This document shows, one piece after another, positions 1 to 5,177 of a DNA stretch of 5,177 nt. A model generated the notes under the pieces. That model worked only from the letters and a program-made list of their open reading frames with translations, had not been told where the DNA came from and did not search any database. The stretch's first letter is position 1, and every line of letters starts with the position of its first letter. The translations under genes and the position numbers were made by a program. Source of the stretch: a virus (Duplodnaviria; Heunggongvirae; Uroviricota; Caudoviricetes); IMG/VR virus record IMGVR_UViG_2695420687_000007, positions 1-5,177 of that record. One strand, given 5' to 3'.

Positions 1-45
1 ACCTATTGCCGATAAACGCTGGACTCACGAGCAAAAAGAGCGTCT

Positions 46-1599
<1,554 letters not shown>

Positions 1600-1609
1600 G
1601 TGAGGAATA

Positions 1610-3562
1610 ATGAGCACAAAATTCAAAACCGTTATCACCACTGCCGGTGCAGCAAAGCTGGCAGCGGCAACCGCGCCGGGAGGGCGGAAGGTCAACATTA
1701 CCACGATGGCCGTCGGGGATGGTGGTGGTAAATTGCCTGTCCCGGATGCCGGACAGACAAAACTTGTTAATGAGGTCTGGCGACATACCCTGAATAAAAT
1801 CAGTCAGGACAATCGACACAGTAATTATATTATCGCAGAGCTGGTTATTCCGCCGGAGGTGGGCGGTTTCTGGATGCGTGAGCTTGGCCTGTACGATGAT
1901 GCGGGAACGTTAATTGCCGTGGCGAACATGGCCGAAAGTTATAAGCCAGCCCTTGCCGAAGGCTCAGGGCGTTCGCAGACCTGCCGCATGGTCATCATCG
2001 TCAGCAGTGTGGCCTCAGTGGCGCTGACCATTGACACCACAACGGTGATGGCGACGCAGGATTACGTTGACGACAAAATTGCAGAGCACGAACAGTCGCG
2101 ACGTCACCCGGACGCCTCGCTGACCGCAAAAGGTTTTACTCAGTTAAGCAGTGCGACCAACAGTACGTCTGAAACACTGGCCGCAACGCCAAAAGCTGTT
2201 AAGGCGGTAATGGATGAAACGAACAAGAAAGCGCCGCTGTCGAGTCCGGCACTCACCGGAACGCCAACCGCACCAACTGCGCCAAAGGGCACTAACAATA
2301 CTCAGATAGCAAACACGGCGTTCGTTATGGCCGCGATTGCCGCACTTGTAGACTCATCACCTGACGCACTGAATACGCTGAACGAGCTGGCTGCGGCACT
2401 GGGCAATGACCCGAACTTTGCGACCACTATGACCAACGCGCTTGCGGGCAAGCAGCCGAAAGATGCCACCCTGACGGCGCTGGCCGGGCTTGCTACTGCG
2501 GCAGACAGGTTTCCGTATTTTACGGGGAATGACACCGCCAGCCTGGCAACTCTGACAAAAGTTGGGCGAGATATTCTGGCTAAAGCGACCGTTGCCGCCG
2601 TTATCGAATACCTCGGTTTGCAGGAAACGGTAGAGTTAGCGGCAGGGGCGGTACCAGCAACACGCAAAGTAAATGGGCGTGCGTTAACCAGTGATATAAA
2701 TGTTACTTCGCAGGATATTTTTAATGGGCAGAGCATTTCTATTGGTGCTAATCAAAACTTAAATGATTATATGACTCCTGGTCTGTATCATCAGTCGCTC
2801 AACGCTAATACAAGCTCTGCGTTAAACTACCCGGAGAATAACGCCGGAAATTTAATTGTGTTAAAAAATGCTGGCGTAAAACAAATTTATCATGTGTATA
2901 ACTCCTCAAGAGTGTGGTCACGTAGCAAATATTCATCAGAACCATGGACACCGTGGGCACGAGAATATAATTCACAAAGCAAACCGACCCCGGCAGAGCT
3001 CGCAGTGTTGGCATTAGCTGGCGGTAGCATGTCAGGGAGTATTAAATTTATAAATGATGCCTTCCTGATTTGGGAAAGAAACACCGACTGGGCGAAAATC
3101 GGATTTAAAAATGATTCAGATTCCGATACTGACTCATACCTGTGGTTTGAAACTGGTGATAATGGCAATGAATATTTCAAATGGCGTACCAGGGTTGGAA
3201 GCGCAACAAAAGACTTAATGTTTTTGAAGTCTGATGCGCTCAGAGTCACAGGTCAGGTGATACCAGCTAATTATGGTAATTTTGATTCACGTTATCAGGC
3301 TAAAAATACCGCGTCCAAAGCGGCGAATGGCTGGCATAAAGATGCCTCTACAGGAATTATTACGCAGTGGGGGTATATTTCTAATGCTGGAGCAGGTTTA
3401 ACATTTCCAGTGGCTTTTCCCTCTGCCTGCGCAAGCATAACAATCACTAACGCACACGGGCGATTTGACTACAGTATTGCTGTTAACTCACTATCCAGAA
3501 CCGGGGCAAAATTTAACAGTGAAGGTAATGGCAATATGTACTGGACAGCTATAGGTTACTAA
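1610..3562 (+). CDS. H: Phage tail fibre protein (P2 gpH-like), conserved N-terminal baseplate-attachment half and divergent C-terminal receptor-binding half
   Basis: 650 aa ORF. The first ~350 residues ([24 protein letters not shown]...[24 protein letters not shown]...AAVIEYLGL) closely match remembered P2 gpH. RBS-like gagga at 1602..1606. The distal portion contains an [36 protein letters not shown] block and a C-terminus ending ...NMYWTAIGY. Stop TAA 3560..3562. Confidence 0.9.
3020..3031 (+). promoter_or_regulatory. ops-like 12-mer GGCGGTAGCATG (matches RfaH recruitment consensus GGCGGTAGnnTG) on the H coding strand; function unproven
   Basis: Exact string at 3020..3031, in frame as codons GGC GGT AGC ATG (G G S M). 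The consensus is from my memory of the ops literature. It lies inside a coding region, not a 5' leader, so may be fortuitous. Confidence 0.15.
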
Positions 3563-3563
3563 T

Positions 3564-3977
3564 ATGACGATTTATTACAGCCCATCAACGAAAGGTTTTT
3601 ACGACGATAAATTAAAAAACGACTACCAGAATAATGACTCATGGCCAGAAGACCTTACTGAAATATCAGAGCGATGGTATAACTATCTTTTGCAAAAGCA
3701 GTCAGAAGGAAAAACTATTAATATCAATGAATATGGTCAGCCAGTAGTTACAGAACCAGAGCTGCCAACTCAGGAAGAGTTAACAGGACAAGCAGAGAGA
3801 CAAAAATCTAAGCTTCTGACAGAAGCGGAGTCTGTCATATTGCCACTGGAGCGCGCTGTCAGGCTGAATATGGCAACAGATGAGGAGCGCAGCCGACTGG
3901 AAGCATGGGAACGCTACAGCGTTCTGGTCAGTCGTGTGGATACAGCAAATCCCGAATGGCTGGAAATACCGCAATAA
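3564..3977 (+). CDS. Tail fibre assembly chaperone (Tfa; P2 gpG / lambda Tfa family), short form
   Basis: 137 aa ORF starting 1 bp after the H stop. C-terminus ...[31 protein letters not shown] fits the conserved C-terminal pattern of Tfa chaperones. Position immediately after the fibre gene matches P2 H-G and Mu S-U synteny. N-terminal part is divergent and AT-rich. Confidence 0.8.
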
Positions 3978-3981
3978 ATAC

Positions 3982-4009
3982 AGGCGGGCTTATTGCCCGC
4001 CTTTTCTTT
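3982..4009 (+). terminator. Rho-independent terminator after the tail-fibre operon
   Basis: Stem aggcgggc (3982..3989) pairs perfectly with gcccgcct (3995..4002) around loop ttatt, followed by the T-rich run ttttcttt. It sits 5 bp after the tfa stop. Confidence 0.75.
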
Positions 4010-4109
4010 ACCGGTGGTTGTGCTGTCGATTAGCCAACCGGGACAAATAGCCTGACATCTCCGGCACAACTGAAAATAGCACTCACCCATTAACCACGGA
4101 GTTAAACGG

Positions 4110-5087
4110 ATGAGTGACTATCATCACGGCGTGCAGGTGCTGGAGATTAACGACGGCACCCGCGTCATTTCCACCGTATCAACCGCCATTGTCGGCATGC
4201 TCTGCACGGCCAGCGATGCGGATTCGGAAACCTTCCCCGTCAATAAACCGGTGCTGATCACCAATGTGCAGAGCGCGATTGCAAAGGCCGGTAAAAAAGG
4301 CACGCTGGCGGCGTCGTTGCAGGCCATCGCTGACCAGTCAAAACCGGTCACCGTTGTCGTGCGTGTGGAAGACGGCACCGGCGACGACGAAGAAACGAAA
4401 CTTGCACAGACCGTTTCCAATATCATCGGCACCACCGACGAAAACGGTCAGTACACCGGACTGAAAGCCCTGATGGGCGCTGAGTCGGTTACCGGCGTTA
4501 AACCGCGCATTCTCGGCGTGCCGGGACTGGATACCAAAGAGGTGGCTGTCGCACTGGCATCGGTATGCCAGGAACTGAATGCATTCGGGTATATCAGCGC
4601 ATGGGGCTGTAAAACCATTTCCGAGGTGAAAGCCTACCGCCAGAATTTCAGCCAGCGTGAGCTGATGGTCATCTGGCCGGATTTCCTCGCATGGGATACG
4701 GTCACCAGTGCCACCGCCACCGCGTATGCCACCGCCCGTGCGCTGGGCCTGCGCGCTAAAATCGACCAGGAGCAGGGCTGGCATAAAACACTGTCCAACG
4801 TCGGGGTAAACGGTGTTACCGGCATCAGTGCGTCCGTATTCTGGGATTTGCAGAAGCCAGGCACCGATGCTGACCTGCTGAACGAGGCAGGCGTCACAAC
4901 GCTGATTCGCCGCGACGGTTTCCGTTTCTGGGGTAACCGTACCTGCTCCGATGACCCGCTGTTCCTCTTTGAAAGCTACACCCGTACCGCGCAGGTACTG
5001 GCCGACACGATGGCTGAGGCGCACATGTGGGCTATTGATAAGCCAATTACCGCAACGCTGATTCGCGACATCATTGACGGCATTAAT
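4110..5087 (+). CDS. FI: Contractile tail sheath protein (P2 gpFI-like), 3'-truncated at about codon 326
   Basis: Not in the ORF track because no stop occurs before the window end. ATG at 4110..4112 with GGAG at 4097..4100. My translation ([30 protein letters not shown]...[56 protein letters not shown]) is near-identical to remembered P2 FI (about 396 aa) up to the GIN codons ending at 5087. Confidence 0.88.
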
Positions 5088-5177
5088 TTTGAGGAAGTCG
5101 CGGCACTGCCTGGCGTCGGACGCTCCACCGCAGGCGCTATCCTCTCACTTTCTCTGGGTAAGCACTTTCCGATTCTC
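5088..5177 (+). CDS. mutY: Internal fragment of adenine DNA glycosylase MutY (helix-hairpin-helix motif region), fused in-frame to the truncated sheath gene
   Basis: Same frame as FI translates [30 protein letters not shown], which matches remembered E. coli MutY around residues 110-140 (..[43 protein letters not shown]..). LPGVGxxTA is the HhH DNA-glycosylase signature and has no place in a tail sheath. Confidence 0.75.

Follow-up and report, generated by a model that had tools for sequence, protein, structure and literature searches.

An in-frame tail sheath-mutY join in a draft-genome contig, most likely from Escherichia albertii, is very probably an assembly or library chimera

Genuine truncated P2-like prophage remnants occur in Enterobacteriaceae, an example being ogrK/D' of E. 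coli K-12. Such remnants are located at or near the P2 attachment site, have contiguous host flanks and recur in related strains. The stretch of DNA analysed here, 5,177 nucleotides in total and referred to as the window, resembles them in that a few P2 late genes (I', H, G, FI') stand beside host genes and the phage genes are cut mid-ORF. The phage genes follow the I-H-G-FI order of the Peduovirus P2 tail module, with about 92% nucleotide identity to P2, Wphi and relatives over the aligned 64% of the query; they differ from P2 itself in the central and 3' part of H and in gene G, which diverge, and 46-64% of the query aligns. The last bases of the window match mutY, the gene of the MutY adenine glycosylase (HhH-GPD superfamily), and comprise 30 of its 350 codons, a fragment and not a gene. 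Taken separately, there is nothing out of the ordinary in the phage part, a P2-like (Peduovirus) tail module, or in the mutY part, a fragment of the chromosomal gene.

The window is the entire record CDRK01000751.1 (5177 bp, coordinates 1-5177) of the draft assembly GCA_000936005.1. This record was reached by looking up exact copies of the full-length tail fibre protein H (1610-3559), which matched 12 contigs; five matching contigs with flanking sequence (L001-L005) served for comparison of the prophage. The deposited record has an N at positions 84, 86, 1322 and 1383, and the window letter is A at all four, these being the only differences. The draft is fragmented, as the number in the record's accession implies at least 751 contigs. 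A literature search for the accessions CDRK01 and GCA_000936005 returned no paper. On sequence grounds the source species would most likely be Escherichia albertii, because the backbone genes are 88.6-91% identical to E. coli, because an exact 32-mer and a 90-mer at 100% match the E. albertii type strain, and because identity to E. whittamii is 95.6%.

Five pieces are joined at four breakpoints within 5.2 kb, in the order yfcH' / 'tatD-rfaH / amylase' / P2-like I'-H-G-FI' / 'mutY'. Besides the sheath-mutY break at 5087/5088, which was the subject of the original prediction, three breakpoints of the same abrupt kind are found at about 85/86, 1320/1321 and 1524/1525. The features are as follows.

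1-84, plus strand: yfcH internal fragment (TIGR01777-family oxidoreductase), cut by the contig start; from BLAST against E. coli genomes.
84-87: junction A, yfcH/tatD; from the window against the deposited record and the native tatD alignment.
88-828, plus strand: tatD without its first 14 codons (codons 15-260 and stop); from the match of the piece 87-1320.
825-1313, minus strand: rfaH, complete, 162 aa, with 7 bp of its upstream region extending to 1320; from exact-protein look-up.
1320-1322: junction B, rfaH upstream region/amylase-family fragment; N at 1322 in the record.
1321-1524, minus strand: internal fragment of an alpha-amylase-family glycosyl hydrolase gene, 204 bp; from BLAST against E. 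coli genomes.
1525-1599, plus strand: P2-like baseplate gene I, last 24 codons and stop, with junction C at 1524/1525; from alignment with L001-L005.
1610-3562, plus strand: P2-like tail fibre gene H, complete, 650 aa; Pfam PF12571, PF03406 and PF21882, identical protein in L001-L005.
3564-3977, plus strand: complete gene G for tail fibre assembly, 137 aa; carries PF02413 (Caudo_TAP) and has the same place in L001-L005.
4110-5087, plus strand: tail sheath gene FI, codons 1-326 of 396; from BLAST and comparison with L003.
5087-5088: junction D, sheath/mutY, blunt, with 0 bp microhomology and in frame; from the three-way alignment of the window, L003 and L009 (the E. albertii type strain).
5088-5177, plus strand: mutY codons 108-137 of 350, helix-hairpin-helix region, cut by the contig end.

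The ORF that is open from 4110 runs off the window end at 5177. In a megablast search of 4800-5177 against 5426 complete E. coli genomes, hits annotated as phage tail sheath protein aligned to query positions 1-288 (4800-5087) and no further, and in a blastn search of 5060-5177 against the E. coli genomes annotated mutY aligned from query base 28 to the end with 91.2% identity. The window tracks the sheath gene of the intact prophage in L003 as far as ...GGCATTAAT, at base 5087, and from TTTGAGGAA... at 5088 onwards it equals mutY of E. albertii NBRC 107761 (L009), with 90 of 90 bases identical. The original prediction had let the sheath homology end with the codon ending at 5087 and had suggested BLAST as the means of fixing the breakpoint to the base; BLAST and the L003 alignment agree on this position, and base-by-base comparison with near-identical native sequences fixed the break at 5087/5088. 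The letters across junction D are ...GAC GGC ATT AAT / TTT GAG GAA GTC...; native sheath continues after AAT with GCC AAA TTC, native mutY has GAG ACC before TTT, and no bases are shared. The three-way alignment bore out the claim that no stop codon, intergenic spacer, IS element or repeat separates the two genes, and showed no inserted base, linker, IS end, att site or microhomology at this junction. A mechanistic signature of rearrangement (IS end, att site, repeat or microhomology) was thus not found at 5087/5088.

The sheath ends at codon 326 of 396, so that exactly 70 codons are absent where about 70 had been estimated, and the mutY part begins in frame at Phe108. As anticipated, the MutY HhH codons follow directly and in the same frame; they are mutY codons 108-137 and span the HhH LPGVGRST motif. 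The truncated gene is FI by homology and by its position after H and G, with 99.9% identity to L001-L005, and the domains PF22671, PF04984 and PF17482 were found on its 396-aa relative. It is not a complete sheath gene, the C-terminal domain (codons 327-396) being missing from the window. Identity to mutY (91.2% with E. coli, 100% with the E. albertii L009 gene) together with the HhH motif assigns the terminal piece, which is not a full-length MutY gene either: it has 90 bases only, with sheath sequence in place of codons 1-107 and the contig end at codon 137. A full MutY gene would have an N-terminal catalytic domain with the Fe-S cluster loop and a C-terminal MutT-like domain.

The pieces were then compared with their native loci. 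In each of the 5426 E. coli genomes, the annotated yfcH is 93-94% identical to bases 1-84. The tatD-rfaH piece (87-1320) is 88.6% identical to E. coli and 99.0-99.4% identical to six genomes with an identical RfaH, in which the native order is fre-ubiD-rfaH-tatD-tatC-tatB-tatA. The exact RfaH protein occurs in 1066 index blocks, and in all six of the places listed ubiD is its immediate upstream neighbour. The amylase-family fragment (1321-1520) is 76% identical to an annotated gene in 3432 of the 5426 E. coli genomes, and the E. coli alpha-amylase-family orthologue adjoins glaH. The prophage piece (1525-5087) has 99.9% identity to L001-L005, and its gene I part translates to the C-terminus of the 176-aa gpI of L003. 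The full P2-like prophage of these relatives adjoins pflB-focA, and its 396-aa sheath is followed by the tube, E/E', tape measure, U, D and ogr genes in L001, L003, L004 and L005, four of the five flanked contigs; the sheath gene of L002 has the same length and is uncalled due to a 1-base gap. L007, a short contig, stops within the sheath gene ahead of the breakpoint position, and the prophage sequence is unbroken in the other listed contigs with an identical H protein. The E. albertii type strain has an intact mutY, and the prediction was right in saying that mutY is not a phage gene and does not lie near tatD-rfaH. Thus one short contig joins five source loci that are unlinked in annotated genomes, and three of these (the tatD-rfaH, prophage and mutY loci) could be read straight through the breakpoint in other genomes. 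The tatD-rfaH segment of the window is a transplanted fragment and not the resident locus.

Several features of the prophage piece and its relatives were observed alongside. The 3' half of H together with the whole of G (2650-3980) is AT-richer than the rest and finds no alignment in P2 or in most P2-like prophages of E. coli; this is the host-range cassette that tail fibres usually swap. Just after G, at 3982-4008, there is a GC-rich hairpin (aggcgggc-ttat-tgcccgcct) with a T run behind it, which resembles an intrinsic terminator separating G from FI, and the G-FI interval of the window, the Z/fun slot in P2, holds no cargo gene. At position 4200, the first position of sheath codon 31, the window has C (Leu), L003 has G (Val, as in P2), and L001, L004 and L005 have T (Phe). 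The resulting L31 versus V31 is the sole amino-acid difference from the L003 sheath over codons 1-326, and the site may be variable, or the window may have a sequencing error there. In L001 (6282-7872), and likewise in L002 and L003 (5898-7488), tail genes S and V are separated by two genes in opposite orientation, one for a Y1 transposase of IS200/IS605 type (PF01797) and one of 357 aa with no Pfam match. At this position, that of orf30 in P2, the pair could be a cargo or defence gene. W/J is shortened to 109/185 aa in L001 (8591-9467) and L005, compared with 115/302 aa in the others. Some of the near-identical prophages look defective, namely L002 (12501-13691, with the uncalled sheath), L001 and L005.

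The other three junctions were placed in a similar manner. At junction A, native tatD matches from 87 only (from 85 if the Ns are disregarded), the E. coli yfcH match fades out over bases 82-84, and yfcH sequence stands in place of the native tatD start codon and codons 1-14. At junction B, the native rfaH upstream sequence diverges from the window after 1320. Junction C (1524/1525) joins two coding fragments in opposite orientation. The orthologues used at the yfcH and amylase-family breakpoints were from E. coli only, with 94% and 76% identity. The Ns at 84, 86 and 1322 are no more than 1-3 bases away from junction A or B, and junctions C and D have none; the N at 1383 lies inside the 204-bp amylase-family fragment, where the match to the orthologue is collinear. 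The Ns at junctions A and B would mean conflicting or thin read support at those spots. The two terminal pieces measure 84-86 bp and 90 bp, about as far as one short chimeric read would extend past a junction.

Same-orientation joins are in frame in two of three cases (amylase' with the rfaH upstream region, and FI with mutY), and the yfcH-tatD join is out of frame. The in-frame status was considered as a sign of selection or design and rejected: two of three is compatible with chance, and therefore the open frame at 5087/5088 carries no weight. The joins also create spurious ORFs in gene calls on the deposited contig, namely a 235-aa amylase'-RfaH read-through (825-1532, minus strand) and a 260-aa TatD whose N-terminus is out-of-frame yfcH (46-828, plus strand). 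An exact-protein look-up of the 235-aa ORF gave no match, which is uninformative as the record has Ns where the window has A.

The sheath-mutY join was searched for in independent sequence collections. The junction 26-mer GACGGCATTAATTTTGAGGAAGTCGC had no exact match in 185,579 species-representative genomes (GTDB, one per species), in the JGI metagenomes or in IMG/VR. None of the 5426 complete E. coli genomes covered at least 80% of the junction-spanning queries, and of the 177 phage records that match the window none reaches beyond base 5087. Recurrence in independent assemblies or relatives, as a real rearrangement might show, was thus not found in GTDB, JGI, IMG/VR or E. coli, with other E. 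albertii strains sampled through protein look-ups and one representative genome.

As judged from these comparisons, the window is very probably a chimeric contig, and the sheath-mutY join would be absent from the bacterium's chromosome; a rough probability of 0.93 is assigned to this reading. With the same confidence, no sheath-MutY protein is expected to be made. This reading is favoured because the window makes up one entire contig out of a fragmented draft of at least 751, because five unlinked loci are joined, with native continuity read for three, because the terminal stubs are of read length, because junction D has no microhomology, IS, att site, repeat or linker, and because the join is unique in all collections searched. 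It is favoured as well because Ns sit at two of the four junctions, but the clean junctions C and D count against it. Of the three readings that the original prediction offered, the assembly chimera stood, whereas a real rearrangement and an engineered join lost ground to the five unlinked loci, the Ns and the uniqueness of the join.

The chimeric contig could have arisen as follows. The DNA of one E. albertii isolate would have been sequenced to a fragmented draft, in which unrelated loci were linked through a small number of chimeric templates or reads. Such links would most likely stem from blunt end-to-end ligation of sheared fragments in library preparation, or alternatively from an overlap assembler joining poor read ends. 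The assembler may then have followed four such links to yield the five-piece contig, and the in-frame continuation at 5087/5088 would be a one-in-three coincidence. A technical origin needs few chimeric templates or reads, and would also account for the Ns, the read-length stubs and the lack of recurrence. A de Bruijn assembler needs at least one spanning read for a 0-bp join, and therefore a chimeric molecule probably existed, at least in the library. Such a library molecule is a more likely source than lenient overlap assembly of poor read ends, and we infer a route by chimeric reads or ligation over a pure software misjoin.

A real rearrangement in E. albertii, in which double-strand breaks were repaired by homology-independent end joining with filler capture and a prophage remnant was fused to mutY, is very unlikely. 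It is consistent with the window sequence being that of the deposited contig, with all pieces for which a close relative was found looking like DNA of one species, with junctions C and D being clean and without Ns, with the in-frame sheath-mutY join, and with the occurrence of truncated P2 remnants in enterobacterial genomes. However, four independent illegitimate joins would be needed within 5.2 kb, between loci that are hundreds of kb apart in E. coli, with no IS, att site or repeat and, at junction D, no microhomology. The positions of the Ns, exactly at two junctions, and the read-length terminal stubs also argue against it, as does the failure of the junction to recur in any collection searched. 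To our knowledge, Escherichia lacks Ku/LigD end joining, a further difficulty for this explanation, and the rare alternative end-joining events in Escherichia are single events. The version in which the contig is real and arose by shattering and rejoining with filler capture, with five loci scrambled, mutY knocked out and a sheath-MutY hybrid ORF formed, is very unlikely. Deletion from a prophage remnant into its host neighbours was also considered and rejected, as the same prophage adjoins pflB-focA and not mutY or rfaH, and the flanks in the window are orphan fragments.

That the window is an engineered or synthetic construct, or a multi-insert library clone deposited with the genome, is highly improbable. 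Blunt, scar-free joins are what co-ligated shotgun inserts would give, and an in-frame fusion could hint at design, yet one of the three same-orientation joins is out of frame, and none of the junctions has a vector, a linker, a tag, a promoter cassette or a restriction site common to both sides. The fragments are arbitrary internal gene pieces without design logic, and we know of no plausible purpose for a 30-codon MutY stub on a truncated sheath, which likewise speaks against construction. Restriction-ligation cloning was rejected: ATTAAT at 5082-5087 is native to the sheath, native mutY reads GAGACC/TTTGAG at the break, and CTGCAG at 1522-1527 is made by the join and absent from the native prophage. 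A natural sheath variant with a MutY-like C-terminus, or a phage carrying a mutY fragment as cargo, can practically be dismissed, as nothing but the ORF staying open across the join speaks for it, whereas the last 90 bases, which the original prediction had considered might prove not to be mutY-derived, are 100% identical to and collinear with codons 108-137 of the E. albertii type-strain mutY, the same prophage at 99.9% identity keeps normal sheath codons 327-396 in L001, L003, L004 and L005, none of the 177 matching phage records passes 5087, and the junction is absent from IMG/VR.

Biologically, the evidence supports neither a sheath-MutY fusion protein nor a rearrangement mediated by a prophage. 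A real join would mean an unusual multi-fragment end joining in a bacterium without classical NHEJ, together with loss of mutY; with mutY inactivated by such a rearrangement a mutator phenotype would be possible, and a sheath-MutY hybrid ORF would be present. With the chimeric contig as the preferred reading, the result is a data-quality flag: given four false joins in CDRK01000751.1, GCA_000936005.1 probably holds more, and its gene calls are unfit for work on synteny, pan-genomes or fusion proteins. Misleading calls on this contig are a 356-aa "sheath", a 235-aa "RfaH" and a 260-aa "TatD" with a foreign N-terminus.

Compared with real P2 remnants, the window differs in that its flanks are internal fragments of unlinked genes and its join does not recur. 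With chimeric draft contigs it shares the short contig that joins unlinked loci abruptly, the ambiguous bases at two of its four joins, the read-length stubs and the lack of recurrence; it differs from them in that the other two joins have a clean consensus, and the technical route is here one that we infer.
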